DNA of 64,000 nucleotides, from assembly GCA_000004695.1 (NCBI GenBank), contig CM000151.3, positions 2,016,001-2,080,000 of the forward strand, read 5' to 3'. The notes beneath the pieces are model-generated. The model saw only the letters and a program-made list of their open reading frames with translations. It did no database searches and was not told the DNA's origin. Source of the DNA: Dictyostelium discoideum. Taxonomy: Eukaryota. Below, piece after piece: positions 3,070 through 64,000 of the stretch; the first letter of the stretch is position 1; each line of letters opens with the position of its first letter. The position numbers and the translations under genes were made by a program.

Positions 3070-3870
3070 TTAAGCAACGGTTTCGATTTTTTCACCACGT
3101 CTCTTGAGGGCAGCGTTACGTTCATCAACTCTTGAACGTCTGACACCTTTACCGGCTGGGAGGGAGACGAAAGTTTGGGAGGCTTTACCAATGATGAAGA
3201 CGTTAGATAAACGAGTGGCGAATTGATGACCAGCAGTATCGGTAACGTGAACGATATCGAAGGAACCTGGATGTTTTTCACGGTGAGTGACGGCACCAAC
3301 ACGACCTAAATTGTGACCACCAACGATCATACATAAGTTGTTGACTTCGAATGGGATGAAAGCAGTGATTTTACCTGATTCAATATCGATTTTAATGGTA
3401 TCGTGGATTGAGATGGCTGGATCTGGGTAACGGATGGTACGACCGTCATCAGTGTGGACGTATGGGATACCTTGGTTACCAGTTTCAACACGGGTGACAC
3501 GGGCTAATTTGAATTTAGCTTCTTCTGGGGTGATTCTTTGTAATGTGAATCTACCTTTTGGATCAAAGAGTAAACGGAAATTTTCCTTGGTCTTTTCAAT
3601 TGAGATGACATCCATGAAACCAGCTGGGTAGTTTGGATCGGTACGGACTTTACCATCAACTTTGACGAGTCTTTGCATTAAGATTAAGGTGACTTCCTTT
3701 TTGGTTAAGGCATACTTTAATCTGTTTCTTAAGACGAGGATTAATGGGAGACATTCTCTTAATTTGTGTGGACCACTTGATGGTCTTGGTGCCCATTTAC
3801 CAGATAATTTATCTAACATCCAGTGATTTGGAGCTGCTAATCTTTTTAAATGTTTCTTTGGACCACGAGC
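3070..3870 (-). CDS. rps4: 40S ribosomal protein S4 (eS4), main exon; the initiator ATG lies on a separate upstream micro-exon
   Basis: The encoded protein [43 protein letters not shown]...GEKIETVA matches eS4 unambiguously. The frame extends upstream as [17 protein letters not shown] to a tttttttttatatag acceptor at 3871-3872, so the first exon is just ATG, which is common for Dictyostelium ribosomal protein genes. Candidate ATG exons are 4301..4303 (ATG|gtatgg, giving a 430-bp intron) or 4245..4247 (ATG|gtcaat). Codon usage is C-biased, typical of highly expressed genes. The stop TAA lies at 3070-3072. Confidence 0.9.
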
Positions 3871-4829: not shown

Positions 4830-7503
4830 ATGACAAAACCAATATTTAAAAGTAAAACCAAACCATTAGGGTGGTCTAAAATATCAAGTAAGGAAGTTAT
4901 TAATGAAGATGAAGAAGAAGAGGAAGGAGGAGAAGAAGGAGGAGAAGAAGAAGAAATAGATAATAATAAAAACAGTAATAATAGTAGTAGTAATAGTAAT
5001 AATAATAATAATGATAACAATAATAACAATGGTGAAGAAAGGAAGGTAGAAAAAGAAGAAGAGAAAGAAGAAATTAATCATTATAGAAATCAATTTGAAA
5101 AAGATTTATTAGATATGGAATTAAAAGCATTAAATAGAGAAACAATTGATAATATTTTAAGTGGTTTAAATTCCTATGAAATTTTTAAAGAAGTTAATTT
5201 CGATTTTGAAAAGTTATATTCAATAATTATTAGTGAACCTCCACCATTATTTGATACTTTCTTTGATTCAGTATCTTCATTTGAAATCTTCTTTACAGAT
5301 TGTTTAATTCTATTATGTAGTAATTTCCCAGACGGTATTGATACATCAATTACACGTCCAAATTTTAATGATTTTTATAATCATTTTAAAGATAGGTTAG
5401 TAGTATAGTAATAATAATAATAATAATAACTATTATTATTTTTCACTGATTATAATATTTATAAAATAAAATTACTAATATATTTCTTTTTTTTTTTTTA
5501 AAAAAAAAAGAGGAGTTATAAATAAATATATTTCAAGAGAAAATATTCACAAAGCATTAAATGATAAGTTAATGACAGATTATTTTAATTCAGGTATATA
5601 TTTAGGATTGTTGGATACTTTAGATATAGCAGCCATTAGATTTATAACGATATTTGGAAAGTTTTTATCATATGAGGTTGTAGAGACAATCAGTAATTCA
5701 TTATTTAGATATAGAACAGACAAAATTGAATTTCTATCAGATATTATTAGAGAATTATTATTATGTAATGAAAAATATAGAACATTATCAAAAAGTTACG
5801 ATTTAGTTCAAAAGAGATTACAAAAAGAAGAATTTACATTTATTAAAGTGTTTGAAGATGATGATCCAAAATTATTCTCAGCATTATATCAACCCCCTGA
5901 TATAATCAAGTTAATTACAGAACCAGAAAAAGATTCAGGGTTTTGGTGTATGATTGGAATATTTAAATCAAAGAGGATTTTAGATTATCTTATAAGAACT
6001 GAACCAAGTAAGAGTTGGTTCAAAGGTAAAGAATCTGATTACTTTTTTTCAATAGCGGAAATGGGTGGAAAATATTTCAATTGGACATTATTGGAACCAA
6101 AATTAATTAAAAAGGAAGTTAATCAGAAATCATTAAAAGGTGTAATACCACCAAGGGAATTGAATAGTCAACAACGTAATACTCAATTCTTTCGAGTTTT
6201 CAATGGAGTTACAGGGTTCAATGATATACGGTTTGTTTATGCCAATCCATCATTAGCTCAACATGCAATAAAATTTATTCAAAAGGTGACTGAATGTGGT
6301 CTATTTTTAAATACTGATGTAAGAAATGTTAGAGATTCCATACCAAATTCCAATAGTTTTCTATTTAGAAAATTCTTAGAGGTTAATTTTTTCTATAGAT
6401 ACGAAAAAGACAATGAGGTATATCAACATCAACCAACTGAAGAAAACTCACTCTTATACTCAACATCAATCATTTCAAGAATTGTGGAAATGGAAGTAAC
6501 TGATCTTTTATCAGTGGTTCTTAAAAATTTAACTCAACAAGGTTGTTCATTAGCACGTGAAGCCGTTGATGAGAGATCTTTGTTAAGTACAATTCATTCG
6601 GATAAATACTATAATAGTTCAATTGTGGTATTACATAATTATTGGCCAATTCCACCAAAGTTTTGTGATTGTTCAACATCATTTATTTCAATGGCCAATG
6701 GTAAATTGCCTAGAACCTATTCTGGTAGCGATGGTGTTATACCTTATATATTTTTCGCTAGAAATCATTTAACACTTGGATTCTTACTATCAATTCATAA
6801 TAATATCACCGATACCATTGATATTAATCATTGGATTTCCGTTGCGATATCTGGTGGACTTTATTATGACAAAGAGGAAATCTTTAGGAAATATCCATTA
6901 CTTCAAAAAGAATCTACACTTCAAAAATATCCAAGACCAGTTAATATTTTAGAATTTCAAACTTTATTAGAAAATAATGAGTGTATCGAATATATCGCCA
7001 GAACTTTCATTAAAGAAATTCCACCTCATGAAGTACCAACTGTTAAACATTCAGATTTACTCATACTCTTTGAAATTTCAGTTATGAAAAAAAGATCAAT
7101 TAGATCAAAAGAATCACTTCAAGCTGAATTAGATTTAATTGAAGAAGAAAAAAGAGAAAAGAAAAAACAAAAAGATAAAAAGAAAAATAAATCAAATCAA
7201 AATCAAAAAAATAATAATAATCAAAATAATCAAAGTAATAATAATAAAATAAATTCACCATCATCAAATAAACTCACTCAAAATGTTACTCCACCATCTT
7301 CACCTGTAAATATAATAACTTCATCATCAACTACATCATCAAGTACATCATCAACAACATCATCAACAACATCATCAACTATAGAACCAAAACCGCCAAC
7401 ACAAACATTACCAATAAAAACATCATCACCAACCAAACCAGAATCACAAAAACCATCAACTCCTGATCCATTAATCCCCAAATCTTCAAAATCAACTACA
7501 AAA

Positions 7504-7581
<78 letters not shown>

Positions 7582-7708
7582 GAAAATAGAGAAATGGCTT
7601 TAGAGGTTATAAATGAAATGGAAAAAATTGAAATTGAGGAATCATTATTATCAACATCTTCTTTGGTACAACCACAACAACAATCACAACAATCACAACA
7701 ACAACAAG

Positions 7709-7800
<92 letters not shown>

Positions 7801-9240
7801 GAAAAACAACAAGAACAACAAGAACAACAAGAATCTATTCAATTAAATCAAACCCTAACACCAATAATACCAGATTTTCAAATTGGTAAATTTAAATTTA
7901 GTAGAGACGAAAATAATATAATAGGGAGAGGATCAAATGGTACATTAGTATTTAGAGGAATTTGGAATGACAGAATACCAGTCGCTGTTAAACAAATGCA
8001 AAAAGCTTTCAATCCTCATATTAGTAAAGAGATTGAAGTATTAATTCGTTTAACGAGTAATAATTGTTCAAATATGATTAGATATATAGATCAAGAAGAG
8101 GATCAATTATTTGTTTATTTAGGTTTAACTTTATGTGAAGAGTCATTACAAGATTTAATGGAATCTAAAAGGTATAAAGAATTTATAGAGAAAACCACCA
8201 CTACCAATATTACAACGACTTTTAATAATAATATTATTGATGAAAATTTATATGAACAAAGAATATTAAGTCTTTTTAAAGATGTTATTAATGGAATTAA
8301 CTTTTTACATTGCCAAGATATTGTACATAATGATTTAAATCCAAGAAATATTTTAGTACATAAGGGTAACTTTGTTATATCAGATTTAGGACTTAGTAAA
8401 ATGCAAGTTGAAACATCATATTCATTTACAAATAATGCACCAACTGGTCAAGAAGGTTATCATCCAATTGAAGTACTTCAAGAGAAACGTAAAACTAAAT
8501 CAGTGGATATATTTTCATTGGGTTGTATTTTATTTTATCTTTTAACCAATGGTCAACATCCATTTGGTAATAATAAATTATTAAGAGTTGCAAATATTGT
8601 CTATGATAAACCAGATTTAGAGCCATTGAAATTTAATGCACCTGCCTTGGATTTAGTTAGATTAATGATTTCCCAAGATGAAAAGAAAAGACCAACCATT
8701 GATACCATACTTAATCATCCATTGTTTTGGTCAACTAATGAAAAAATCAAATTTTATGAATCTTCTTTAAACCTTTTAAAAGATCCAAATAATTCTCAAT
8801 CAAAACATAGTAAACTATTGAATTATTATCAAAATGATAATAGTGGTGGTGTATTATTTTTATCAAAACCTTGGAATCAAATTATTGATCCATTTTTAAT
8901 TGATCATGTTGAAAATAATAATAATAATAACAATAACAATAACAATAATAAACAAAACTCTAAAAAGTTAGCAATAGTTGCATATCAATACGATCAAGTT
9001 AGAGATTTAGTTCGTTGTATTAGAAATTCCTTGGTTCACCATAAGGATATATTAAGATCAATCACTCAACAACAAAACTTACCCCCATCCTCAAAGGAAT
9101 TTGCCAATGATTGTCTAAAAAGTCAAGAATCTGTACTATTATATTTCGAATGTAAATTCCCTGACCTATTATTTCATTTATATCAACAATTTAAAAAATC
9201 AGATTTCAATTCTAAAGATTATTTAAATATAAAGTTTTAG
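4830..9240 (+). CDS. IRE1-like (irl family) protein with a Ser/Thr kinase-like domain followed by a KEN endoribonuclease domain; exons 4830..5395 and 5538..9240, about 1421 aa
   Basis: Exon 1 ends AAAGATAG|gttagt at 5395 in phase 2 and exon 2 begins after tttcaag at 5538, giving ...[21 protein letters not shown]. The intron 5396..5537 is 142 bp and AT-rich. The C-terminal region aligns to the IRE1 kinase ([12 protein letters not shown] glycine loop, [38 protein letters not shown]). It then continues into a KEN domain (NHPLFWS...[22 protein letters not shown]...[17 protein letters not shown], compare IRE1 HPFFW...VRDLLRAMRNKKHHY...FVCYFTSRFPHLL). There is no luminal or transmembrane part. Poly-Gln (CAA)n and poly-Asn tracts lie in the linker. 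Confidence 0.8.
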
Positions 9241-9585: not shown

Positions 9586-11977
<2,392 letters not shown>

Positions 11978-12795: not shown

Positions 12796-16812
<4,017 letters not shown>

Positions 16813-18472: not shown

Positions 18473-18531
<59 letters not shown>

Positions 18532-20271
18532 ATATATTCTTACAGTATGTTTTTTAATTATTGATTTAACTTCATCTTTTTCTTTATTTGATTTATTAGT
18601 TATTAAAATATCAGCTATAGTTTTCCAAAATGAATTTAAAACTTTAATTTCATTATCTAAACAAGTTTCAAATTCATGTAGTATATGATTTGCACTCGCC
18701 AATTCATTATTTTCAAATTGTTGATTCGATAAGATTTTAGATTGTTTTAAAGAGGTTGAAATATAATGATAATTATTAATTTGAAAAATTACAGATTTAA
18801 TTGGTGGTTTAAAGAAATCAGTTGCAGGTTGAGTTGGAAAATCTTTTTTCGCTCTACCTTGTAAATATTTAATTAAATTTTTTAATATCTTTTCTAAGAA
18901 ACCAATAAATGATGTAGGTAATATTGTTGAAGATGCAGAATTTGATGATGATGATGATGATGATGAAGATGAAGATTTACTATTTGAAGAGGTTGATGAT
19001 GGTGCATTACTATTGCTGTTACTATTATTATTATCTTGACCTTTTAATAATAATTCAACAGAATGTTTATATTCAATTAAACGTTTAAAATAATTGATCA
19101 TATTTGAAGAGATTTCATCAACAGTTGCATCAGAGATGATTTCTTTTCTATTTGAACTTGAAATTTCTTTTTCTTCATCCAATGAGAAATCTAATAGAGA
19201 GGCACAAGTATCTTGTAAATGTTTAATTTGAGTTTTTAATTCACTAATATGTTTACCATCTCTTGAACTGATTGCAGTGATAAAGTCTGGTAATAGTTTA
19301 GTAAAAGTATCGAATAGATCTAGTAATGGGAAAATACTGAAGATTTTATCACCAGGCGTTTTTCTTACTTTAATGATTGGTTCAGTGGTTTCCAAGAGTA
19401 GTTCATGGGCAGGGTCAATGATTTCGTCGAGAATCAATTGATATTGGTTGCCAAATAATTCACTTGCCAAATCGTACTCTATCTGATAGAGACGCAATGT
19501 TTCTTGAACGTAGGAAATCAGTGGATGGGATCCCTTGACGTAGGCGAGGTTCTTGGTTTCACTGGTTTGTTTTATGAATTTCTCAGGCGCCATTTTACGG
19601 AGTGACAAAAGGATGAATTTCGATCGCTTATCTTTATACTCTTTTAAGAATGCATTGTAATGTAGTTTTTCAAATAGTTCAATATATTTGGAGATCTCTT
19701 CGACGTGGTTGGGTAGGATGATTGCTAGATAACGCTTGGAGTTGGGTAACTTCGCTATGGTGGTTGGGTCGACCAAATTGCTGATTTTGAGAAGCAATGA
19801 CTTGAAGCTGGTTTCAAGCTCGTTCAAGCCGGTGGCTTTCAATTGTTTCAAAGCGTCCATCACCTTGTCTGACGACTTGAAGTGCGATTTCTCGGCAATG
19901 TAGTCGATGGCATTGCCGACATGCTCCAATGCCAGCATGTACGACACGTAGTCTCCCTTGGCGCCGTCGTTGATTTTGGAGTCGATCTTATCGACGTCGA
20001 ATTTGTCCAGTACCGATTTCACCTGCTCCATGGTGGAATTAATATTATTGAAAATGCTCGACCACTCATTCATCGATGCATTGATGGGAGCCACATCCAT
20101 CTCCAATTGGGACAAGCCTTCATTGAATCGATCCAATATATAAATCATTTGCTTTGACATTGAATTGTTTTTCTCTAATTGCTCTTTTATGAATTGTAAA
20201 TCACGTTTATCATTCTCCAATTGGTCGTCCTGTTCGGTCAATTCCGAGGTCGCATTGTTTTTCCACGACAT
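18015..20271 (-). CDS. exoc7: Exocyst complex component Exo70 (exoc7); exons 18544..20271 (ATG at 20271; the frame stays open further upstream to 20400), 18272..18399 and 18015..18114, about 651 aa from this ATG
   Basis: The body aligns to Exo70 (NDKRDLQFIKEQLEKNNSMSKQMIYILDRFNEGLSQLEMDVAPI, compare human EEETLSFIRDSLEKSDQLTKNMVSILSSFESRLMKLE). The track ORF ending RIYFF* actually ends at a ACT|gtaaga donor (exon end 18544). Two further exons, NFLKTFNDLNKLKFDIPDQELKLKLKTEAKNIIGRSYDQFKEL and CRLEKIHLEKNFVPFETTDDINRKLDRVFDSQ*, reproduce the Exo70 C-terminus (human ...VEQVGDMIDRLFDTSA*). The introns are 18400..18543, holding poly-T and (GTTTGT)n, and 18115..18271, holding (GAT)n. The upstream boundary is ambiguous, as described under findings. 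Confidence 0.8.
18136..18213. repeat. (GAT)n microsatellite of about 26 units inside the last intron of exoc7
   Basis: A perfect trinucleotide run. It is flanked by the GAATT|gtaagt donor at 18272 and the attattag acceptor at 18115. Confidence 0.95.
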
Positions 20272-20407
20272 TACCACCAAATTACTGCTTTTCAAAGCAC
20301 CTGTAGATTGAACTGTTGTCACAGAGTATTCAGAGTTTAATAGATTTCTAATATGCTCAAACTCCTCATCATCAGCTTCTGTTGGTGTCGCATAAAATAG
20401 CTAATCA

Positions 20408-21249: not shown

Positions 21250-23714
21250 ATGGCTAATGAAATAATTACACCTACTGAAGGTGAATTAAAAAGTAAGTAT
21301 CCCCTTTTTATTTTTTTTCATTTTATTTTTATAGTATTTTAAATTAAATTATTAATTTTTATTATAACATAAAAAAAAAAAAAAAAAAAGCTATCATTGA
21401 TAAAACAGCAGCATATGCAGCAAAATTAGGTGAGAGTTTTGAAAATAAAGTTAAACAAAGAGAAGGACACAATGCAAAATTTAATTTTATGAAAGAAGGA
21501 GATCAATATTATCCTTATTATAGAAATAAAATTGTAGAGAATAAAGCAAAAATTCAAGCAGATGCAGCAGCAGCTGCCGCAGCTGCAAATCCAAAAACTC
21601 CTTCTACTACCACCACCACAACAACAACCACAACAGCAACAACACCACTACCAACAGCAACAGCAACAACAACATCACCAACTCCAACAACATCATCAAC
21701 TATAGTACCAGTACCTCAAACAAATTCAACTCAACAACTACAACAACAACAACAACAACAACAACAAACAACACCAGTATTTGAAAAACCACAACCTCCA
21801 CCCCCACCACCACCAAAAAAAGAACCAACACAACCTGATCCACTTTTATATATTTTAGATGTACCTGATTTTATGACCCCATTAGAATTGTAAGTTGTAA
21901 AATTAATTAATTTTATTGTATCTATCATATTAATTTATTAATTTTTTTTTTTTTAATAATTATTACTCTCTAGAGATACAATTAGATTAACAGCACAATT
22001 TATTGCAAAAAATGGTGATAGTTTTTTTATGGAATTAGCAAGTAGAGAAGTAAAGAATAGTCAATTTGATTTTTTAAAACCAACCAATCATTTGTATGAA
22101 TGGTTTAGAGCATTGGTAGAATCCTATGCTCAAATTATATATCCACCACAAGGTATAAAGGAGCAATTAAAGTCAAACTATTTCTCCAATAAACAAACCA
22201 TTCTAGAGAGAGCAATGAATCGTTGTGAATATAATCAACTCAAAGAGATTGAGGAACAAAAGAAAGAGGAGCGTGAGGATGAGGAGAAAACAATCATTGC
22301 CTCAATTGATTGGCATGATTTTGTAATTGTAGATACCATTGAATTCAATGAGGATGATTTAGACGACTTACCACAACCAAGAACATTTGACCAACTGATT
22401 GCTGGTGATACACCATTTGGTGGCAGTGATTTCGATAATGATGGTCATGGTTCAAATGGTAAAGGTGGTCAAGATATGGAGATGGAGATGGATATGGAGA
22501 TGGAGATGGATGATGAAGATAATAATAATAATGAGGATGAGATTGAAGAATCATCATTATCGTCAACAAATACAACAGGTAATTTACCACCAAAAGATCA
22601 ATCAAAATTAAAAATTGTTAAAGATTATCAAAAATCAAATTCATCTGTTAAATCTAATGCACCAACAAAATTAACTCAGTTATGTCAATTTTGTAAACAA
22701 GAGATACCATTGGACGAAATGCAAGAACATATGAGAATTGAATTAATTCAAAAACAACAAAGAGATTCGAGATTGGGTGGTGGTGGTAGTAGTAATAATA
22801 ATAATAATTTAACAAATACTTTAACTCAAGATGACGATATCGCAAGAAATCTTCAATCATTTGCAAGTAAAAGAGTTGATATCTTTGGTGAAACAGAATC
22901 TTCTAAGAAACAAGATGAACAACCAACTCAAGCACCAAAAGTTATTTGGGATGGTCATTCTGGTAGTATTCCAAGAGTACAAGCTGCTCAACAAGCTGCT
23001 CAATTAGCTGCTCAACAAGCTGCTCAACAAAAAGCTGCTGCTATTGCTGCTCAACAAGCATCTCAGCAACAAGCATCTCAACAACAACAACAACAATTAC
23101 AACCACCACAACCAATTGGTATTCACCATCATCCACAACGTCATTTACCACCAGGTATGATGCCTCCTGGAATGATGCCACCTGGAATGATGCCACCAGG
23201 TATGATGCCACCTGGAATGGTACCACCACCACCATTTGGTATGATTCCACCTGGAATGGTACCACCACCACCACCAGGTTTAATGATACCAACTGCACCT
23301 CCAGGATTAATGATACCACCAACACAACAACAACAATTACCTCCCCAAACAAATACATCCCCATCCTCATCCTCTTCAATTAAAGTTGAAGAACCTCAAT
23401 CTAAAAAGTTAAAGATTGATGATGTATTAATTCCTGAATCAGTTTGGTTACAAAATAATCCAAACCCTGTCAATTTAACAGTAGAAATGGCTGATAAAAG
23501 TAATATTTATCAAATTACACTTCAACCAACCGATAGTATATCTTTATTAAAAGAGAAAATTAAAGAACTTAATGGTATGCCAACTAATAAACAAAAATTA
23601 CAAGCTCCTGGTTTATCAATTTTAAAAGATACTTGTAGTATAGCTTTTTATAATTTAAAATCATTAGCAATAGTTACTTGTGGTCAAAAAAAAAAAGGCG
23701 GTAAAAAGAAATAG
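21250..23714 (+). CDS. sf3a1: Splicing factor 3A subunit 1 (SF3a120/Prp21-like) with two SURP domains and a C-terminal ubiquitin-like domain; exons 21250..21292, 21391..21889 and 21974..23714, about 760 aa
   Basis: Exon 1 is MANEIITPTEGELK with a A|gtaagt donor. Exon 2 begins after aaaaaag with SURP1 (IIDKTAAYAAKLGESFENKVKQREGHNAKFNFMKEGDQYYPYYRNKI) and ends GAATT|gtaagt. Exon 3 begins after ctctag with SURP2 (IRLTAQFIAKNGDSFFMELASREVKNSQFDFLKPTNHLYEWFRALVESY). It carries a PPGMMPPGMM proline-rich region and the ubiquitin-like fold (IYQITLQPTDSISLLKEKIKELNGMPTNKQKLQAPGLSILKD) before the stop at 23714. The introns are 98 and 84 bp. Confidence 0.8.
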
Positions 23715-26309: not shown

Positions 26310-28097
26310 CAAAAAAAAACAGACTGTTGATAAAGTTAATAAATTTTTAGAAATTTTATTAGAAGAAGATTCAGATTATATAAATATAGAATATATACCA
26401 ATGATGGAAAATATTTTAAATAGAGTTTATTCAACAAATTTATCTACAACATTAATAAAACCATCTCCAAGAATCTTTAATTTCATATTGAATTTAGGAA
26501 AATTACAAGTTGCTGATATTGAAAATCATAAAAAGTTCATTCCAATGTTACGTTCACTTTTGGCAATTTTAGCAATTAATAATATTTCATTTTTAAAATT
26601 AACAAAATTCATTTTTCGTTTAGTTCATATAATTTGTGATATACCACTTTCAAATTATTCTTTTGAAAAAAGACAAACAATTTTTAAAAATCATTATTCT
26701 TCAATTATTCCATTTATTTTTGAAAATTTTATAAATGTAATGTATAAATAAATAAATAAATAAATAATATAAATAAATAATATAAATAATAAAAATAAAT
26801 ATTAATTTTTTTTTTTTTTTTTAAATTTTATATAAAAAAATAGTGTAAAGATGATTTAAATATATTAAAAAATTTATTTGGTGAAATTGTTGAACAATTT
26901 TCATATCAACATTTATTATCATTAATTCAAAATAATAGATTTGAAAAGGTAACATTAAATATTATATCATCATTGAATGCTGGACCAACATTGGAAAAGA
27001 ATATAATGTCAATATTTAATACAATAGTTTGTTTCATTAATTATGATATTCTAAGGGATGATGCATATCAATTACTTGAACATCATATGGCAAATTTTGG
27101 TTGTTACTTGGCAGAGTTACATTCATACATTTTACCATTGGTTTATAAACAACAACATAATTTCCCAATATCAACTTTTAAAGCTTACTTTAAATCTCAT
27201 GAACTTTTAACATTATCACAATTTCCAATTTTATTTAAAAATTTATCAACAACAAGAATTGATATTATTAATCATACTTTATTAACACATAATAAAGAAA
27301 TTATTGAAACTGTAAGTTTAATAATAATTAATAATAAATAAATAAATAAATAAATAATAATAATAATTACTTACCCCTCCCCCCTTTTTTTAAAAAATTA
27401 ATTTTTAAAGCATTTTTATAATTTTATACCAAAATTATTAGAAGTTTTATTAGATAATACTATTGAAAGACCATATTATGTTTTACCAAGTATTGGATCA
27501 TCAATTCAAACAATTGGAAAGAATGAATTTTTTGATAAAGTTGTATTGAATATTTCAAATCATTTATTTTCAATAAAAGTATTAAGATTAGATAATTATG
27601 ATGTTGGTTCAATTGGTGAGATTATATTGGGTTTATTTAAAATTTATAAGGCATATTCAAGGGATTATGTTAATCTTTGGAATTTAGGTATTAATACATT
27701 TTTATATTATTTAAATACAACTTCAACTACAATGTATTTAATACCATATGTAAAGGATATATTAGAGAAGTATCCAATTGATTCAATACCATACGTTAAA
27801 CAATTTGAAGAGAAATTATTAAAGAATTTTGAAATCATTTCAATAAATTCAACAAATAAAGAAATCATTGATCAATATATAGAACTATTTGAAAAGTTAT
27901 CCACTATTAAATATTTCAATTATCTATATAATTATAATTTAAAACCACCCCAATTACAATCATCTTTAAATTCTTCAAATGGTTCTTTGCCAAATTTCAC
28001 TCCTCTTCAAAAATCACAATCAATAAATTCTTTCTCTGGTTCTTCTTCAAATAATTCATTATATAAATCACAATCAATTACAATAATTCATGGTGGA

Positions 28098-28131
<34 letters not shown>

Positions 28132-31100
28132 CATCATCGTCATCTTCAAATGTATTAAATAATAGTAGTAACAGTTTAACAAAATCAACAAGTAATGGCG
28201 TACTATCATCATTTGTAATTCATAAATTTACATTAAATAAGATAATTGATTCTTTAAAATTAGTTAATAGTAAATTTAAGAATCATAAGATTAATCATTC
28301 AATTTTAAAGATTATAGCATCATTATTTAATGAATTTGGTATGGATAAGAAAACTGGTAATATTAAACATATAATTGGTATTTTGAATCAACATGAAATT
28401 GTAGACTTGATTAAATCTTATAATTTAAATAACTCTTTGATTTTATCATCAAATTCAATTTATCAATTGTTTTCATTGGATATGGTTAATGGTATTGGTA
28501 ATGATATTAAAATCTTATTCAATCAATTAGTTAAAGAATCACGTTCTTTCATTTTACAATATTCAAAACAATTCATTAGAGATTTAGTAATAAACTCTGC
28601 TTTAATTGATCAAACTAGTTATGGTAATCAAAATAGTCTATTCATTGGTGACCAGAAATTCAATCACATTCGTTCCTTTTTTAATTTCATTATTTCAATT
28701 AATGGTGACACAATTAATAATTATCTATTGGAAGTTTTATTATTATATTCAAAATATTCAAAAATAAATAATAATAATAATAATAATTCAACTTCTTTAT
28801 CATCACTCTCTTCCTACTCATCAAAGAATTATTATAATCAAGGTAATGAATTATTGGAGAAATTAATTTGTTTTTTAATTGAAGATAATAATCATTTCCC
28901 ATTAAGTCAATCAAATTTAGATTATATTATTCAATTAAGAAGTAAAACTTCTCAACATTTTGTTGAAAGAATTTGGAAAGTTTATGGATTAGAAACTCTT
29001 AAACGTTCAAAATATTTCGATCGTTATTATGAAGTTGTTTCAATTAGTAATACAAAATTTAAATTATCAACAGCTATATTAAATAATATTAATAATAATA
29101 GTAATAATAATACTACAACTATTAATGTTCCAACAAGATCACCATTATCACCAAGACCTTCTGATAATAAAGATTTAACAAATGAAGTTTTACCATCAAG
29201 TAGTAGTAGTTCTATTAGTAGTAGTGGCGGTGGTGGTTCAACCCCATTAGATTCATCATCAACAACAACTACTCCTTCAAATTCATCAGTTACAAGTAAT
29301 AATGGTGGTGATGGAAGTAGTAGCAGTGGCAGTAGTGTGACAAGTAGTGTCGTATCATCACCAGTTGTTGGTGTAAGTGGTGGTGTTAAAACTACATCAA
29401 CTTTAACAACAATTACAAAAACAACATCAGTTGTCGAAACTAAGGTTAATAGATATTCAAATATATCTGGTAATGGTGACATTATTAAATCTTCAACTAC
29501 TGAAATCCTTGAAAAACCAACACAAATCTCATCGGTAACTGAAACTAAAGTTAATAGATATGCAAATATCTCTGGTAATGGTGATATTATTAAACCTTCA
29601 ACTAATGAAGTCCTTGAGAAACCAACACAACTCTCATCGGTTACAACTTCAAAAGCTACCAATAGTACACCAGGTGTTCATACTGCTGCAGGTATTGAAA
29701 TTCTACCAAATAAACAAAATCGTTATTCAAATATCTCTGGTAATGGTGATATTCAAGAATCTGGTAAAACTACATCATTAGCTTATCTTGATAAACCTTC
29801 TTCTTCCTCATCATCATCAAATGAAAATAAAGTTGATCAAACTGCTTCAATTCATAATAATCCTTCAATAGCTACTCATACAACTGGTAGTAGTCATAGT
29901 TTCTTAAAACCTTCAAATAGTGGTGTAAATGTTTTAAATAATGAAATTTATAAACCAACTTTAATTTCCCAAAATTTAATAAATAATAAATTATTATCAC
30001 CAACTTCAGCAACAACAACAACTACCACAACTACAACTACTACATCACCATCATCGTCAACAACAACAACAAACAATTATAATAAAACATCAACAAGTAT
30101 TTCACCAACAATTTCATCTACATCATCAAATTATTCATCACCATATGAATCATTACCACCAAGTCCATCAGTTTCAACAACAATGATTAAACAAAGTAAT
30201 TTTACAAGATCACCATCAGGTAAATCATATCAATTTATTAAATTAAAGAATCATATTGATGATTATGGTTTCTTAATTTTAAATGAATCAAATAAACCAG
30301 TTGTACAACTTGATTCAAAATTGATAAGTTTAATTATTAAACATTATGTAAATGATTTAACAATTGATATAAAGGATAAAATTGATATATTAGGTACAGT
30401 TTCAAGAGAATTCTTTAAATTATTATCAATTGAATTATCAAATCTTAAAACAATTTGTCATTTCATTAGATCAAAACCATTGGTAAATGAATATGATACA
30501 ACTCAATTATCAGATTACTCTTTAATTAAATCAATACCAAATTGTTTTTCAATGGATTCAATTCATAAATTTCCTTTAGTTTTTATTTTATCAAATCATA
30601 ACAAATTATTTAATCAAGTTAATACATTAGAAATTAATCCAAAATCATTATATACTTTTGATTTAATTAATTCTTCAGAACAACAACAACAACAACAACA
30701 ATATCCATTATTAAAAAATTTAATAATTACAAATAATGTTGGTGAATGTGTTAATCCATCATTTAATGGTGAAGATATTGCTTTCCAATGTTTAAAAAAT
30801 TATATTGATCAATTAGAGAGATTGGATTTAAATTATAATTATTCAGGTTTATCATTGGATGGTGCAATGGATTTGGAAAAAGATTTAATAGATTGTCAAC
30901 TTTTAAATGAATTAAATTCATCAAAGAATACTCAATTAAAAACTAGAATCTCTTTGAAGTCAATTCATTCAATGTCAAGTTTAACAGTTTTGTATAATAA
31001 TTTATTATGTAAAAATTTGAAAACACCAATGGTGCCCACTTCAAACACTACTACTACGAATCCTACAATTGTTCTTGTTGAAAATGGGGTTAGTATTAAT

Positions 31101-31835
31101 CAATGTAAATCAATCTTGATTGATGTTAAATTATCAAAACAATGTAAAGATTCAATAATTGATGGTGAACAACAATTTAAAGTTCAAATGGTACCTTTTT
31201 TTAGATCTTTAGATATTCATTATCCAGAGAATGATTTCATATTTAAGCATCCATCTGATAGTTATTTAAATTTACAAAGTTTATCAATTAATTTAAATAC
31301 TAGTACTGCTAATATTGGTAATGGTGGTGGTAGTGGTTCAAATACTCCTTCAAGATCTTCACCAATTCCAGGTGGTGCTGGTGCTGGTACTGGTACAAAT
31401 ATTGGTAATTCACCTGTTGGATTTTCACAATCAACATTTTTAAATCTATATTTAAAGAATAAGAAAATTAAATTATCAAAATTAAAGTTTAAAACCAATT
31501 CATTATCTTTAATTAATCAATTGTTAACTCAATCTCAATTTGAATCATGTTCAAACTCAATTAAAACAATTGAAATTTTAATTGATTTAGATACAAGTAC
31601 AATTCATTATGATCACATGTCTATCATTAATGGTGATTTCTTTGCTTCAGATTTAAATCAATTATTTTCCATTTTGGAAAAGAATAAATCAATTGAAAAG
31701 GTTATTATTTCAACTTCAAATGATCACAATGATATGATTTTCATTGATAGAGATCATTGGAATAGAATTAATACTGGTTCTTTTAAACCAATTAGATTAA
31801 ATTCTTTAAATTTGTTTGAAAGATTTTTATCATAA
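25459..31835 (+). CDS. Large multi-exon gene of unknown function (about 1900 aa) with helical N-terminal exons, a long Ser/Thr-rich centre holding tandem 37-aa repeats, and a C-terminal region with LRR-like periodicity. Exons are 25459..25530, 25672..25894, 26012..26167 (tentative end), 26351..26736 (tentative start), 26844..27311 and 27411..31835
   Basis: The ATG at 25459 is followed by 24 codons and gtaagt. Exon 2 runs from atatag|GCAGATAAA to ATTG|gtatgt. Exon 3 begins after tatatag with EYMKWAESEDRLRG. The exon 4 frame is continuous from at least 26351 (or the cag acceptor at 26321) through MMENILNRVY to AAT|gtaatg at 26736. Exon 5 runs from aaatag|TGTAAAGAT to GAAACT|gtaagt at 27311. Exon 6 begins after tttaaag at 27411 and runs to the stop at 31835. 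All phases are consistent except the exon 3/4 junction, which needs a weak GGAA|gttttt donor. I recognised no domain. The centre carries three repeats of ETKVNRYSNISGNGDIIKSSTTEILEKPTQISSVT. Confidence 0.55.
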
Positions 31836-41583: not shown

Positions 41584-44371
<2,788 letters not shown>

Positions 44372-45112: not shown

Positions 45113-48100
45113 ATGAATTATAATAATGATTTATATTCTAGAAATAGATGGAGTAAAAATAATAACAATACCAATAATAATAATAATAATAGTTATAATA
45201 CCCATCATATTAATAATGATATAAGTAATAACTATAATAGTAATAATACAAATATATTTAATAAATCCTATTCAAATAATAATAATAATGATAATAATAA
45301 TAATAATTATAATAGTGGTGTTAATAATAATTATAATGGTAGTGGTTCAATAAAAATTATACCACAATTTATAAAAATTTATATTTTCAAAATTAATAAT
45401 AATAAATGGGTACAACTTTTAAAAAGAATAATTAGACAATTAACTCAAGGTAAATTGAAAAAGATATTTTTGGTTTTTCAAGTTTTAGTTTTATTCTTAT
45501 TGTTGGAACATACTTTAAATAAATTTCAGCGTACAAATGATAGTGATTCAACATTGATTGGTTATCGAAATAATTTATGTTCACCTTATGGCAACGTTGG
45601 TGGAATAGAATACCGTGACTCTTTTTCAGAGGTTTTTAATAGAAATCATCTAAATCAATTATTAAATAATTATAATATCGATCGGGATATATTATGTAAT
45701 TATGGACAACAATATCAATTTAAAAAGTTTATTTGGTTATTTGTCGATTCATTAGCACATGATCAGGCGTATGATATGATTGAGCCATTTAAAGAGAATT
45801 CCAATGTTTATAGGGTACTTAATCATGGCTTCAAATTCTCCACTGCCATCTATACTACATTCTTTACTGGTAAGATTCCGACAAACTATGCAGGTAAACC
45901 AATTCAATCGGATAATATATTCTATCAAATGAAGAGAGCTGGTAATCATATGCATTTCGTTGGTCCGGAATTCCCTGCACCAGCATTGTTGGCCGATTCA
46001 CCATCCACCAATCGTTACTTTGAAGAATTCACCATTGTACCCGACGAAACAAATCTATTCTCACAATTGTTTGATCAAGCCAATTCAAATCCAACATCAG
46101 AATCTGTGGCACAGAGATTGAATCAGTTCACAAATGATGGTAGAAAGAGTGTAATGTTCACCACCAATCTATTGGATGATAAAATCCATAGAAATGGTAA
46201 AACTCATCCACCAACATTAAGATTACTATCAACTCTAACTAAAAACATACCATTGTTGAAGAAATGGTTGGCCGATAATCCAGATTACTTATTCATTTTA
46301 AATAGTGATCATGGTGGTAGTAAAACAGGTGGTGTCAACGAAGGTGATCTTCATGGTGCTAAAGATGGTGGTAATGAAGGTTTCTTTTTATTCTACAATG
46401 AAAAACATATAGCATTACAATCGAAACAATCACAACAAATCGATGATAGACCTTGGTTGGATACAGTCGATGTTGCTCCAACCATTGTCAAATACTTTAA
46501 AGATACCAATATACCTTTAGAATCATTGGGTTTGGTCTCCTCTGGTCATTACAATGATTTAAATTCACCAAACATCAATAAAACTGCAATCTATATGGAT
46601 CTATTAATCAATGCAATTCAAATCAGAGAATTATGTCTTTTAAAAGGTTTCCCCTATAGTGAAAGTGATTTCGAAAGAGCAATTTCTTTAGGTACATCAA
46701 TTCAATCTCATCAATTATCTGATAAAATAGATCAACTTAAAAACTTTATTATAAACATTAAAGAGCCAATGGTTGAATTTAAAAAATTCCCTTTAAATTA
46801 TTTAATTTTCACTGGAATTTTATTATTTTTAGTACAGGTAATTAATTTATTTATTTCTAATCTTTTTTTTTTTTTTATAAAAATTATTAATCTTTTTTTT
46901 TATTTTTTTTTTTTATATAGATTATAAATTTAAAGATAGAAATTTCACAAAATGATATTTTATCATTATTAAAGAATAATTTTTTACCAACTGTATTCCC
47001 ATATTTTTATATCTATATTGACTTTTTATTTTTAAAATTCGATTACCATAAACATTTTACAAATGTTTTCAATTTTTATTTCATAATTATTCCAGTCATA
47101 ATTTTATATTTAATTTATAATTTAATGATAGATAAAGTTAGTAATAATCTTAACGAAGATAATGAAGAATTTATTAATAATAATGATATTGATGAAGTTG
47201 ATATTATTTCTCAAGAATTACAACAACAACAACAACAACCTCAAGTACCTTTAATTCATATGAATCAACAACAGCAACAACAATTACAAGTAGAAATAGC
47301 ACCACTTGAGGAAATTTCTTTAGATGATTATAAACAACCACAATCACAACAACAACAACAACAATCACAACCCTCATCAAATGGTATGATTGCTTCGTCA
47401 GCCGAATCATCAACAGCTAATGTACCAAATACTCCAATTAACCAACAAGAACCTATTTTCATACCACAACAACTACAGCAACCACAACAACAACAACAAC
47501 AACAACAAATTGAACAACAACAACAACAACAACAACAACAGCAACAGCAACAACAACAACAATATAATAGTAATAATAATAATAATAACCAACAAGAAGA
47601 ATTAACACCATCAATGTTAGGTAATATTAATTCAAAAATTGAATATGAATGGTTAAATGGTATAGCATTTAATATTTTCTTTGTAGTTGGAACATTTGTA
47701 TCAAGTCATTTCATTATGGAATTTTTACCTATGATTTATGAAAGTTTAGAATCATTTAGTTTTTATACAAACTATTTTATTTTATATTATTTCATTTATA
47801 TTTTAACAATAATTAAAACCATTCAACTTGATAATAGTAATAATAATAATAATTATAATAATACTAGTGGTAATATTTTATTAAATAATCCAATTAAATT
47901 ATTAAATTCAATGCAAACTAGATTATTATTTTTAAAGAGTGGTGGAGTTTATTTGATAGCAGCAACATTATCATTATTTTATGATATTAGTGGTATACCA
48001 TCAATAATGCAACTATGTTATTTGATATTATTGATTCAAGTTTTGATTTTGGTTGCAATGGGTAATTTAATTGACGAATTATGTTTCATTTCAAGTATAT

Positions 48101-56142: not shown

Positions 56143-59100
56143 TTATTTTGAGTATTTGGCAAGGATATGATTGAATATCATTTGGATCAGGTTATTTTCA
56201 CCACCATTACCATATGACCCAATTGATTGAAGGAATGATATTTGTTCTTTTGAGATACCATAGGCTTTTTCAAAATTGTATTTTTGATCAAAGTCTAAAG
56301 TGTGGAAAGTTCTTAATTTAATACAAACTTTTTCATTAGAATCCATCACCATACGCTTCCACTGTTTAAAATTAACTTCTTTACAATTTCCACCTTTTTC
56401 ATTTTTTAATACTTGGAGAATTTTAACAGAATTAATAACTTCACCATAAACATTATAGATCTTTAATGAAGAATCTGAAGAATCTTTAAAGTTATCATTA
56501 AACATTATTTTAATTATATTATCGGCTACCCAATTCACAGGTGAACATAATAAATTAATATCTACTTCTTTATCAGATGGGAAATAACCTAATTTAAAAC
56601 TTGATTGAAGCATCAATTGAGTGATATCACCATAATGACCAATACCAGTATCAGGATTTGAAAATATACTTGGAGCTCTAAATATAATTGATGGAATTTT
56701 AAATCTTGATGATGCTTCAGTTAATAAAAATTCAGAAATTACTTTACTTTGCATATAACCTGTTGGTAAATTATTTATTGTTTCAAGTTTTGGAGTTGCA
56801 ATTGATCCATTAAATTCTTGATTGTAAAATACTGAAAATGTTGATATTGTAAGTATTGGTTTTGGTTGGTGGTGTTGTTGTTGTGTTGGTTTACCAAAAA
56901 GTGAAAGTTTAATAATTTCTTTTAAACTATTAACATTTACTTGTTTACATTCGTAATAATTTGCTCTTAGATTAATATCAGCACCACTATTTAAAAGTAA
57001 ATTTGTATTGTTTGAAATTAATGAATAATTATAATCAGATAAACCAAACTTCTTTTTAGTTAAATCTCCAACAATTGGTATAATTTTTGAAAGATGTTTT
57101 TCATTTAATTGTTTATAATATAATTGATGATGTTTTAAATTATTCAAAATCTCATCAACTGGATTACTAGATTTACTTTTATTTCTTAATAAACAATAAA
57201 CTACTGAACAACATTCCATTTGAATTAAATACCAAAGTAAATAAGCACCTAAAAATCCTGTACTACCTGTTAAAAATATTCTTAATTCATTTTCTTTAAA
57301 TTCTTTAATTTCTATTTGATTTCTTATTGAATTTGATGAAATTAAATTAAATTCATCATCATCAAGTTTAATTTCATTTTTCCAAAATTCTTCAGATTCT
57401 ATTGTTTTATTTTCAGGAATATTATTATTTTTTTTATTTTGTCGATGTTGTTGTTGTTGTCCATCACCAATTTTTAATTTTAATTGATTTGTAATTAATT
57501 TAATTGATGATGATATTGTGTTTGATTGAAGTTGTTGAATTGTAATTAAACTAGAGTAGATTTCTTTATCAATCCAATTTTTTAATTGAACTGTTAATAG
57601 TGAGTCTGCACCATACTCAAGTAATCTTAAATCTTGATTAATCTTTGATACTTCAATAGATAATAGTTCTGATAGTTTATTTAAAAATAAACTATCTATA
57701 CTTGTGTCATTTTCAATTTTTTTATTATTTGTTAATTCATTATTTTCAATTAGATTTGTAATGAAATCGAATTTATGTATCATTGGATGTTTTTTATAAT
57801 GTTCAAATAAAGTTTTAAAATTAAATGGTGATACTATTAAATTTGTAGATTGAAAAACATTTTGAATTTGTGAATCTAATAAACCCAATATCATATTGAT
57901 AGGTAATGGATACAAACCTTGGCCATCTAATAGCTGTGCAATTGATTCATTTCTTGAAACTAAACCTGCAGATTGAACAGATCCATAATTTGTACAAATT
58001 GAAGGTAAACCAATTGATTTCCTATATCTTGATAATGAATCTAATACTCTATTAGAACAAACATAAGAACATTGATCAACTGAACCAATTATTGATGCAA
58101 CTGATGATGATAATATAAATTGTTTTAATTTCCAATTTCTTTTTATAGATTGATTATGTAAATTAATTGCACCCATTGTTTTTGCACCATGTGAAATTTC
58201 TAAACTTTTCATATCGATTTCATTTACACCACAAAATGTAAATTCAAATGCAAAATGAAAAATTGAATCTATATTTGTTATTGTTTTTGAATTTCCATTT
58301 AAAATTTGATCAATTGCATTATCAACACTAATCGAATTACTAACATCAACACTCTTAAAATGAAAATTAATATGTTTATTCTTCTTTATTAATAATTCTA
58401 AACCCCATTTCATTGATGATTTTGAAAGAACTATAATATTTTTAACATTTTCTGAAAATTTAACAATCCATTTTAAAATTTCTAAAATAATACCAGACTG
58501 ACCTGTTACTAATATTGTTGAACCTAAATGATCTTGATTATTACTATTAATTTTATAATTTGTTTTTAAAATTGAAAAATTTGAATTAATTTGATTTTTA
58601 TGAACATCAATTAAATCACTTAGAATGTTAATATCATTATTTACAACTATTTTACCAATATGTTTACGTTTATTAATATATTCAATTGCTACTTTAATTG
58701 TTGAATTTGAAAATTCAGTAATTGGCATTAAGTTTAATTCATGATTTTCAATAGCTCTAGTTATTTTCTTTAACATTCTCTGTATTAATGTTTTTTCAAT
58801 AAATAATAATTCAACATTATGATAGCCAAAATTATATTTAAAATTATTATTATTTATATATTCATTTGGATTTAAATGAGTGATTGATAAATCTACAATT
58901 CTACCACCAATATTTAAACATTTGAAATTTGAATCCATATAATCACTTGATAAAGTATTTAATATTAAATCTACACCATGTTTATCTGATTTTAATTGTT
59001 TTAATTTTAACTTTATCTCTTCTGAATAGTCTTTGTTCATTGTTGAATAAATTCCAGTTATAAAATCACCATAGGTATTGATAAGGTATTGCTCTTTCTC

Positions 59101-62100: not shown

Positions 62101-64000
62101 TAGATTATCAATATAACCACAACCTGGGAAATAGTATTTACCATTCACAATATGACCTTTAAGATATTTGAATGGTTTCTTACTAATATCAATAAATGTT
62201 TGATATGATTTAACATTTGGTGAACTTTCAATTAATGAAAAACCAAGTTGGTCAATTGGAGGTCCTTGAAATTTGTGTTTTTGTTGAACTAAATCTTCTT
62301 TCCAATATTTTTTATCATCCCATTGATAATTTGGTAATATTATTTCTTGATTATTATTATTATTAATTATTTGCTCATCTTTGAATTGTGATTTAAAATT
62401 GATGTTATATCGATTATCACAATAAAGTTTAGCAATTGTTTTTTGAATCTCTTGAATATCATTCTTTTTCTTATGAAGTGCTGAATATATTGAAACTTTG
62501 AAATTAGTTTCTTCAGTAGTTGACAAAGATGATACAGGTATCATTTGTTTTAAATAAAACTGTAATGTTGGATGTGGTGCTAATTCAATGAATACAATTT
62601 CATTTCCTAATTTATTTATTTCAATATGTTTATATAAATTTGAAATTGTTTGGGAAAATTTAACTGGTTTTATTATGTTATTATAAACATATTCGGAGTT
62701 GAATGGTGTTGTTGAAGATTCGTATAAATTTGTTGTTACTGTTGAAAAAATTGGTATTGTTGGTGATTGATGATTAATGTTTAAATTTAAGATTTGATCT
62801 TTTGTAATCTTTTGATTTGAAGTATGGAAAGATGATAATGAAGCTAACATTGTTGAGAAAATTCCTTTATCTTTTAATTCATTTGATATTTGATTTAATT
62901 GTTGTTCATTACCTCCCAATACAATTGAATTTGGTGAATTGTAACATGCAATTTCAATATCTGGGTATTTAGTTGAATAATTTGATGATAAATAATCTTC
63001 AGAACTAATACCAATTGATAACATTCTACCACCATTACAATGTGTTTCAATTTGTGCTAATGATCTATGATAAATTAAATAACATAAAGTATCCAATGTA
63101 ATCATACCTGAGCAATAGGCTGCTGGAATTTCACCTAAACTATGACCAACTATAAATGATGCTTCAATACCCCAATGTTTATATAATTCGAATAATGATA
63201 TCGTTAACATACAAACTATTGGTTGTGCAATTGTTGGATGTTGAATACTTCTATCTCCATCATCTATAATTGATCTAAATTTATTTAAAACTGAATATTC
63301 ATAATACTTTAATAGTTCATCATCTAATAAATCCATTGATTTTTTGAAAATTGGTTCATTATTATACAATTCCAATGACATTGTATTATATTGTGAACCT
63401 TGACCCGCAAACACAAATACAGTAATTGGATTATTTTGAACTTTTGACATATTTGATGATTGTGTATTAGATGTTTGAATTTTATTTGTTGATTCAATAT
63501 TTTCACTAAATTCATTCCAATTTGAAGCAGTAACTACACAACGTTGGTAAAGTGAACTTGATTTACTAAAAATTTGTTGTTTAACAAACTCTTTAAAATC
63601 ATTTGATTTTTTAAACAAATAATCATTAACCACCGATTCATACTGTTTTAATGATTGTACTGAATTTGCAGAAAATGGTACTAAATACTGTTTTTGAGTT
63701 TGTAAATTTTTTAAATCTTCACTATGTGTGCAACTGTTTTTGTTGTTGTTGTTTTTATTGTTACCTTTGTATTCTGATAAAATTAAGCAACAATTTGAGC
63801 CGGTAATACCAAAATTATTTAAAATCATTGAAAAATTATCAGTTTTTTGGAGATCTTTGAAATGGATAGGTTCTGTAACAACTTTTAAATTCCATTCGTC
63901 AAATTTAATTGATGGATTTGGATTTTTAAAATTAATATTTGGTGTTAGATATTTGTTTTTAAACATTAAACAACATTTAACCAATGATGCAGAACCTGAA
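56143..64000 (-). CDS. Type I highly reducing polyketide synthase, partial (the N-terminus lies beyond the window end). Domains are KS(C-terminal part)-AT-DH-cMT-ER-KR-ACP plus a C-terminal NAD(P)-dependent reductase
   Basis: The frame is open from the window end at 64000 to the stop at 56143; the track M at 63984 is a TTG. Motifs are the KS end [14 protein letters not shown], the AT signatures [10 protein letters not shown] and GHSLGEI, the DH motif [14 protein letters not shown], the methyltransferase [14 protein letters not shown], the ER motif [21 protein letters not shown] and the KR motif [18 protein letters not shown]. The ACP motif is [17 protein letters not shown], and the terminal reductase shows [18 protein letters not shown] and YMQSK. 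Confidence 0.9.

Follow-up and report, generated by a model that had tools for sequence, protein, structure and literature searches.

To our knowledge, IRE1 and RNase L represent the two known ways of coupling a protein kinase fold to a kinase-extension nuclease (KEN) domain. IRE1 is membrane bound and relies on phosphotransfer, whereas RNase L, a vertebrate protein, is soluble, driven by a ligand, and dead as a kinase. RNase L is also the only well-studied pseudokinase of the IRE1/RNase L family that we know of. In this work, we analyzed 64,000 nucleotides of the Dictyostelium discoideum genome (GenBank assembly GCA_000004695.1, contig CM000151.3, positions 2,016,001 to 2,080,000 of the forward strand; hereafter, the window, to which all coordinates refer) and focused on irlA, a gene that encodes an IRE1-type kinase-KEN module behind a large N-terminal region. 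The explanation that we prefer, with a rough probability of 0.5, is that IrlA is a cytosolic ribonuclease (RNase) that self-association turns on and whose kinase fold serves mainly as a nucleotide switch.

The IRE family of the Dictyostelium kinome ('Other/IRE') is expanded to seven members; all of these carry RNase(L) domains, and only IreA appears to be membrane bound (Goldberg et al., 2006; PMC1420674). In the kinase tree of the same study, IreA is the sister branch of the Irl proteins. That 2006 study had thus already reported irlA itself, the enlarged family, the absence of a membrane anchor from the Irl proteins, their domain of RNase L type, and the precise motif variants (PMC1420674). 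Among the described relatives, RNase L binds ATP canonically and has been reported as inactive as a kinase (PMC4718504). Yeast Ire1(D797N,K799N) has no detectable kinase activity, and its RNase is still activated by nucleotide binding (Rubio et al., 2011; PMC3082176). The residue K799 of yeast Ire1 coordinates the terminal phosphate and is needed for phosphotransfer (PMC3082176).

Three points are new here. The first is a position-for-position parallel between the catalytic loops of IrlA and RNase L, which is absent from the kinome analysis (PMC1420674), as are the KEN catalytic residues and the N-terminal domain. The second is a set of contrasts with RNase L, namely, an Arg at the position Asp+4 of the loop and a full activation segment. 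The third is that the predicted RNase site is conserved across genera and that the N-terminal domain, among the proteins searched, occurs only in Irl proteins; a tentative ankyrin-like fold of this domain may be added to these points. These additions are leads on an understudied family rather than a discovery, and the motif changes were tabulated in 2006.

Gene Structure and Domain Organization

Judging from its predicted product, the gene is D. discoideum irlA, which has been named already and has no published functional study; our search of the searchable literature found no functional, biochemical, or genetic work on any of the irlA-F genes. The spliced translation is 1431 aa long and is identical to the approximately 400 N-terminal residues that Table S2 of PMC1420674 gives for IrlA (DDB0231216). 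Its motifs VAVK, HNDLNPRN, and DLG are the same as those tabulated for this protein. The long open reading frame (ORF) at 5572-9240 (+) extends upstream over an intron to an ATG at 4830, such that the gene starts approximately 740 nt upstream of the long ORF. The parts of the gene and of its product are as follows.

4830..5395, + strand: exon 1 (aa 1-188 and two bases of codon 189), based on the ORF and the donor site AG/GTTAGT; it encodes an acidic, Asn-rich N-terminus and the beginning of the N-terminal domain
5396..5510, + strand: intron of 115 nt, AT-rich, GTTAGT...AAAAAAAAAAG; the frame is restored over the junction, and the spliced protein agrees with the Table S2 entry
5511..9240, + strand: exon 2, which ends with a TAG stop, based on the ORF and the spliced translation
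5070..7152, + strand: Irl-specific N-terminal all-alpha (helical-repeat) domain, aa 81-736, with the intron inside
7153..7869, + strand: low-complexity linker, aa 737-975, Lys/Glu-rich and then S/T/P-, poly-N-, and poly-Q-rich, based on composition
7870..8727, + strand: IRE1-type protein-kinase-fold domain (Pfam Pkinase 7912-8727, aa 990-1261), based on Pfam, IRE1 alignments, and Foldseek
8797..9204, + strand: KEN RNase domain of HEPN type, aa 1285-1420 by Pfam, based on Pfam Ribonuc_2-5A and human IRE1 alignments

Approximately 975 aa precede the kinase domain. The initial annotation, which missed exon 1 and therefore lacked the first 209 residues, had counted about 700 aa and had treated them as one unrelated block; they instead comprise a conserved domain and a low-complexity linker of approximately 240 aa. 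The window has a G+C content of 22.9%, with poly-Asn and poly-Gln tracts that are typical of Dictyostelium. A sequencing or frame artifact was considered for the unusual motifs and was ruled out, as paralogues and homologues from related genera carry these motifs unchanged.

Kinase Domain and Catalytic Loop

The kinase domain of IrlA has a clear match to Pfam Pkinase (E = 1.2e-35), and its best relatives among solved structures are yeast IRE1 (E = 1.7e-43) and human IRE1 (E = 5.7e-42; phmmer against PDB sequences). The best 16 PDB sequence matches are all IRE1, the next match is weaker by 22 orders of magnitude, and RNase L is absent from the best 60. When compared pairwise, IrlA and RNase L score 38 bits over the C-lobe and KEN. 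A Foldseek search with the AlphaFold2 (AF2) model of the kinase-KEN module, which is of moderate confidence, placed 41 IRE1 chains ahead of any other kinase and included no RNase L among the best 50. The AF2 model of IrlA was based on 10 sequences and has a mean predicted local distance difference test (pLDDT) score of 58.6, with values below 50 in the KEN domain; the geometry of the nucleotide pocket and of the RNase active site was judged from alignment, not from this model. The motifs of the kinase domain are as follows.

7924..7941, + strand: glycine-rich loop GRGSNG (aa 994-999); GRGSNGT is invariant in eight Irl-type kinase-domain sequences
7981..7992, + strand: VAVK with the beta3 Lys K1016, based on the IRE1 alignment and Irl homologues
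8029-8031, + strand: alphaC Glu E1029, based on the IRE1 alignment and Irl homologues
8326..8349, + strand: catalytic loop HNDLNPRN (aa 1128-1135), based on the IRE1 alignment; identical in IrlA-F
8383-8391, + strand: DLG motif (D1147)
8383..8472, + strand: activation segment, from DLG to PIE (equivalent to APE), with Q1169 at the position of PKA T201

The phmmer alignment pairs the loops column by column, with HNDLNPRN of IrlA over HRDLKPQN or HRDLKPHN of IRE1 and 'isDLGlsk' over 'isDFGlck'. This agrees with the initial annotation, which had described a residue-by-residue match to IRE1, the replacement of both the Arg and the Lys of the catalytic loop by Asn, and an intact VAVK lysine (K1016) and glycine loop (GRGSNG, in frame). 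In this alignment, the two substitutions lie within the loop: N1129 replaces the HRD Arg (PKA R165), and N1132 replaces the catalytic-loop Lys that contacts the gamma-phosphate (PKA K168, yeast Ire1 K799). The former places the Irl proteins among the 'non-RD' kinase folds. A further change affects the equivalent of PKA T201, the Thr of 'GTxGW' in IRE1 and the usual partner of the catalytic-loop Lys; here, every Irl-type sequence has Gln or His. The kinome study had already read the lack of Ser/Thr at this position as a hint of Tyr specificity (PMC1420674). The combination of HRD(L/I)KPxN and a Thr at PKA-201, which is canonical for IRE1, is therefore replaced in IrlA by HNDLNPRN and Gln1169.

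Other elements of the kinase domain are retained, including the glycine-rich loop, K1016, E1029, D1130, and the Mg ligands N1135 and D1147. The hinge is IRE1-like (L-T-L-C; pattern L-x-L-C), and the C-lobe is complete (DIFSLG, RPT). None of the losses that serve as the pseudokinase criterion (K72, D166, or D184) is seen, with K1016, D1130, and D1147 all present. The DLG in place of DFG, which the initial annotation also listed among the alterations, is indeed found at 8383-8391. As a sign of inactivity, it was rejected: IreA and the Acytostelium Irl proteins have DMG, and the predicted-active NDR kinase NdrA has DLG (PMC1420674 table). Because of the motifs in IreA and NdrA, DLG is uninformative in this respect.

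KEN RNase Domain

The KEN domain of IrlA was recognized by the Pfam profile Ribonuc_2-5A (E = 1.6e-9; 38.4 bits against a cut-off of 23.3). When the KEN domain alone was used as a single-sequence query against PDB, the matches were not significant (E of approximately 0.5), so the significance comes from the Pfam profile. Its segment around the putative active site aligns without gaps to 'tYkggsvrdllramRNkkhHy' of human IRE1. One feature is central here.

8983..9039, + strand: RNase active-site cluster Y1347 (8983-8985), R1360 and N1361 (9022-9027), and H1365 (9037-9039), in register with human IRE1

By this alignment, Y1347, R1360, N1361, and H1365 correspond to Y892, R905, N906, and H910 of human IRE1alpha. 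The motif RNSLVH lies at 9022-9039, and the spacing is Y-x12-RN-x3-H. The RN...H cluster is thus kept, as had been annotated. Of the two His residues in 'RNSLVHH', the one equivalent to the catalytic His of both IRE1 (H910) and RNase L (H672) is the first (R+5). RNases of the HEPN superfamily have all-alpha domains in which the Arg of an Rx4-6H motif is followed by a polar residue (PMC3710099), and R1360-N-S-L-V-H1365 fits this motif (Rx4H).

A run of 12 Asn codons at 8914-8949 falls inside KEN and precedes the catalytic Tyr by 10 residues. The insertion site is approximately at the position of a substrate-contacting helix-loop element in IRE1, and homologues carry other inserts there.

Conservation Among Paralogues and Other Species

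The combination of VA(V/I)K, HNDLNPRN, and DLG is found in all six D. discoideum Irl paralogues and in two duplicate copies on chromosome 2 (PMC1420674 tables), whereas the canonical sensor IreA has VAVK, HRDIKPHN, and DMG. These paralogue motifs were taken from the supplements of that study. Comparison of irlA-F therefore bears out that the variants HNDLNPRN and DLG are common to all, and prediction rates these proteins as 'active' (PMC1420674).

For other species, the homologue search was repeated with low-complexity sequence removed, since poly-N words had swamped the first pass; this yielded five matches. Irl homologues were recovered from D. firmibasis, D. purpureum, Polysphondylium violaceum, Tieghemostelium lacteum, and Acytostelium subglobosum. 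All seven kinase-bearing Irl-type homologues from these five other dictyostelid species have GRGSNGT, VA(V/I)K, HNDLNPRN, and D(L/M)G. The pattern of the activation segment, D(L/M)GLSKM-x-V-x3-(F/Y)-x-(F/Y)-x4-6-(T/S)G(Q/H)-x-G(Y/F)-x-P(A/I)E, is likewise shared by all seven. Because the loop changes are present across paralogues and homologues of other genera, they are a fixed family signature under purifying selection rather than the decay of a single copy.

The RNase pattern Y-x12-RN-x3-H is found in six of the seven kinase-bearing homologues and in an eighth sequence, a D. purpureum fragment without a kinase domain. It is absent in P0002 of Acytostelium subglobosum, an Irl-type gene model that lacks the RN-x3-H segment of KEN. 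The 290-aa N-terminus of P0002 gave no match to the Irl N-terminal profile (hhalign). This model could be a mis-predicted gene or a true RNase-dead member.

Beyond the dictyostelids, P0008 from the protosteloid amoeba Clastostelium recurvatum (EukProt transcriptome) is a 493-aa kinase-KEN protein that has HNDITPRN and DMG and no extensive N-terminal region. Its loop points to an origin of the HND/PRN variant before both the dictyostelids and the Irl N-terminal domain. A separate group (P0003-P0006 and P0014) consists of short (approximately 507 aa), apparently soluble kinase-KEN proteins, most of which have HRDLKPQN, DFG, and RN-x3-H. Given the canonical loop in this group, soluble IRE1-like proteins occur both with and without the catalytic-loop changes.

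N-Terminal Region and Solubility

No transmembrane segment or signal peptide was identified in IrlA; the highest 19-residue Kyte-Doolittle mean is 1.55, the window of peak hydropathy contains two Asp and one Arg, and the N-terminus is charged. These features support a soluble protein without a luminal sensor of the endoplasmic reticulum or a transmembrane segment, and this part of the initial annotation stands.

In none of five family members did the N-terminal domain match a Pfam entry, even at E up to 10, and a word-based homologue search with residues 81-736 was without matches. An exhaustive phmmer search of 1.84 billion representative proteins returned four matches (E = 6e-35 to 7e-8), all of which are full-length Irl-type proteins from other dictyostelids. 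Within D. discoideum, the N-terminus of IrlA has weak but significant blastp matches to those published for IrlC and IrlD, and the remaining paralogues connect to one another. By these comparisons, the domain is family-specific, conserved over its whole length in the alignment, and fast-evolving.

We looked for a relationship to the ankyrin repeats of RNase L in several ways. A profile search of the N-terminal domain against PDB sequences found no match, the hhalign comparison with the ankyrin domain of RNase L reached a probability of 0.3%, and a hidden Markov model of the ankyrin repeat made from the RNase L repeats scored the Irl N-terminal domain no better than shuffled sequences. Foldseek against PDB returned only generic alpha-solenoids at insignificant levels (best E = 0.01; TM 0.15-0.24). 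An ankyrin-like fold may be proposed for this domain only tentatively.

The linker that follows contains 56 Gln, 44 Asn, and 33 Ser among its 239 residues. In this regard, it resembles a flexible tether, as found in IRE1, more than the short, structured linker of RNase L.

A Proposed Nucleotide-Switched RNase and Alternative Explanations

Based on these features, we infer the following sequence of events for IrlA. The N-terminal domain would bind a ligand or partner, or self-associate, such that molecules are gathered in the cytosol and their local concentration rises. With Mg-ATP or Mg-ADP bound, the kinase folds would then form back-to-back pairs, as those of IRE1 and RNase L do. This pairing would create a KEN dimer capable of metal-free RNA cleavage via Y1347, R1360, N1361, and H1365, following HEPN chemistry. 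The kinase fold would act mainly as a nucleotide-dependent dimerization switch. Phosphotransfer by IrlA is probably weak, absent, or re-specified, because three residues, namely, the RD Arg, the Lys that contacts the gamma-phosphate, and the Thr201 that partners this Lys, are replaced family-wide. The precedents of RNase L and of Ire1(D797N,K799N) lend support to the idea of a nuclease regulated by a pseudokinase.

Several observations weigh against this explanation. The catalytic Asp (D1130) is kept, and the activation segment has its full length, a conserved S/T-x-F/Y cluster, and an end resembling APE, whereas RNase L lost this segment. The Arg at Asp+4 (R1134) is invariant. Tyrosine kinases of the HRDLAARN type, which are without the loop Lys, use an Arg at Asp+4 instead, and the loop of IrlA may likewise be compensated rather than crippled. 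All six Irl proteins were rated 'active' in the kinome analysis (PMC1420674). The yeast precedent is a double mutant from which the catalytic Asp was removed too, the KEN domain of the AF2 model has pLDDT below 50 with the active-site geometry inferred from alignment only, and the search of the literature turned up no biochemical or genetic work on any Irl protein.

Some of these observations would be accommodated if IrlA were a fully active kinase that trans-autophosphorylates like IRE1 to license or attenuate its RNase, with the Arg at Asp+4 in place of the Lys and perhaps with Tyr or dual specificity. We regard this as the strongest competitor, although the balance of evidence leaves it somewhat doubtful. 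It is consistent with the presence and invariance of K1016, E1029, D1130, N1135, and D1147, with the intact activation segment and its conserved hydroxyl residues (ETSYSFT), and with the occurrence of R1134 in every HND-type sequence, including HNDITPRN of Clastostelium. Besides the 'active' prediction, the kinome analysis placed the Irl proteins among the kinases likeliest to accept Tyr, in view of position 201 without Ser/Thr, and there are other active kinases without this Lys, such as haspin with HNDLHFGN, which was rated active (PMC1420674 table). However, RNase L belongs to the same family, has amides at both positions, and was reported inactive despite canonical ATP binding (PMC4718504). 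Furthermore, without the RD Arg, a phosphorylated activation loop lacks its usual contact, and three interacting residues (PKA R165, K168, and T201) changed together. Taken together, these points place the role as mainly a nucleotide switch slightly ahead of an active, re-specified kinase.

The initial annotation had inferred a cytosolic nuclease regulated by a pseudokinase-like domain and more similar to RNase L than to IRE1. The predicted solubility, the retained KEN residues, and the loop parallel with RNase L favor the first part, whereas the retention of all active-kinase residues and the 'active' prediction do not; it is a reasonable hypothesis rather than a conclusion. The second part holds for solubility and for the amides in the loop and fails for the kinase-KEN sequence and fold, which are of IRE1 type.

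A bolder idea, which we consider unlikely, is that the Irl proteins evolved independently in Amoebozoa as a counterpart of RNase L. They would represent six fast-diverging cytosolic sensors in a professional phagocyte, in which a degenerate ankyrin-like domain binds a pathogen or stress ligand or a second messenger, leading to dimerization of a kinase fold that binds nucleotide but does not phosphorylate and to RNA decay by KEN. Because RNase L is a vertebrate protein and only dictyostelids yielded the Irl N-terminal domain, convergence is the more likely origin of the resemblance; the ankyrin-like fold on which this idea depends is the tentative assignment described above.

It is quite improbable that the Irl proteins are catalytically silent decoys or partners that adjust the unfolded-protein response by forming heterodimers, via the kinase-KEN interface, with IreA in the membrane. 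The IRE1-like kinase-KEN module, the position of IreA as sister branch in the kinome tree, and the oligomerization of IreA upon endoplasmic reticulum stress (PMC6025073) are compatible with such a role. However, the RNase residues Y, R, N, and H and the nucleotide-binding residues are invariant across five other dictyostelid species, which is unexpected for a decoy, and the divergence of the large N-terminal domains among the six paralogues points to separate inputs and not to a single common partner. Least probable of all is that IrlA belongs to the RNase L lineage, with KEN, a pseudokinase, and an ankyrin-repeat domain that senses a small second messenger all inherited from a common soluble ancestor: the analogous loop substitutions, the solubility, and the similar domain order are outweighed by the lack of any sequence-level ankyrin signal, the generic alpha-solenoids from Foldseek, a kinase-KEN module much closer to IRE1, the absence of DFD and of a truncated activation segment, the approximately 240-aa disordered linker, and the dictyostelid-only distribution of the N-terminal domain.

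Genomic Neighborhood

The neighbors of irlA identified by Pfam are of housekeeping type and unrelated to it.

3070-3819, - strand: ribosomal protein S4e
9586-10958, - strand: sorting nexin, the convergent downstream gene, with PX at 10716-10958 and a Vps5-type BAR at 9589-10446 (E = 1.5e-65)
18523-20322, - strand: Exo70
22029-23714, + strand: PRP21/SF3a-like splicing factor with a ubiquitin domain
41584-43086, - strand: SUN-domain protein
56143-63984, - strand: polyketide synthase ORF of at least 2613 aa, which runs off the end of the window

The PX and BAR parts of the sorting nexin are in separate ORFs, probably split by an intron. The polyketide synthase has acyltransferase, methyltransferase, ER/ADH, KR, ACP, and terminal reductase domains. 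Three long ORFs have no Pfam match at E of 1e-5 or better, namely, 12796-15162 (-; 788 aa), 27546-31835 (+; 1429 aa), and 45113-46927 (+; 604 aa). No tRNA genes were found in the window.

Comparison With IRE1, RNase L, and Engineered Ire1

The kinase-KEN module of IrlA is IRE1-like by descent, and its architecture, with a soluble protein and a large N-terminal domain, is RNase L-like. The best match in sequence and fold is IRE1, including yeast Ire1p, human IRE1alpha/ERN1, and Dictyostelium IreA. IRE1 and IrlA share the glycine-rich loop, VAVK, the alphaC Glu, the hinge, the HxD Asp, the Asn, the DxG Asp, and the RNase residues Y, R, N, and H. They also share the length and pattern of the activation segment, and in both the kinase is directly followed by KEN. 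Unlike IRE1, IrlA is without a signal peptide, luminal sensor, or transmembrane segment. Within the kinase domain, it has HNDLNPRN instead of HRDLKP(H/Q)N, Gln instead of Thr201, and PIE instead of APE. The all-alpha N-terminal domain and the long low-complexity linker of IrlA are unrelated to IRE1.

The catalytic loop of RNase L is HQDLQPQN in both human and pig (checked against PDB chains 4OAU_C and 4O1O_A). Compared with HNDLNPRN of IrlA, both proteins have amides at the positions of the HRD Arg and the catalytic-loop Lys. RNase L (PDB 4OAU, 4OAV, 4O1O, and 4O1P) and IrlA are also alike in being soluble, in having the order N-terminal repeat-like domain, kinase fold, and KEN, and in their identical Rx4H spacing (RNLGEH in RNase L and RNSLVH in IrlA). 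Several features differ between the two. RNase L has DFD, whereas the Irl proteins have D(L/M)G. At Asp+4, there is an Arg in Irl (R1134), a Gln in RNase L, and a His or Gln in IRE1. The activation segment of RNase L is truncated and without APE, whereas that of IrlA is full and ends in PIE. The ankyrin repeats of RNase L are clear in sequence and bind 2-5A, in contrast to the Irl domain, in which sequence methods give no ankyrin signal. Finally, RNase L has a short, structured linker between the ankyrin repeats and the kinase, whereas that of IrlA is disordered.

The change K799N of the engineered yeast Ire1(D797N,K799N) is one that occurs naturally in Irl. The mutant differs from Irl in that it lacks the catalytic Asp, which Irl keeps, in that it is membrane bound, and in its chief phenotype, a failure to switch off. 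As Dictyostelium is genetically tractable, the six irl genes can test whether phosphotransfer is dispensable in a natural K-to-N variant of IRE1, and they also bear on the role of cytosolic KEN nucleases outside vertebrates. These comparisons place the Irl family between the two described systems: it is soluble and has RNase L-like loop changes, while the kinase domain is in all other respects a complete, IRE1-like one and the N-terminal domain is peculiar to the family.

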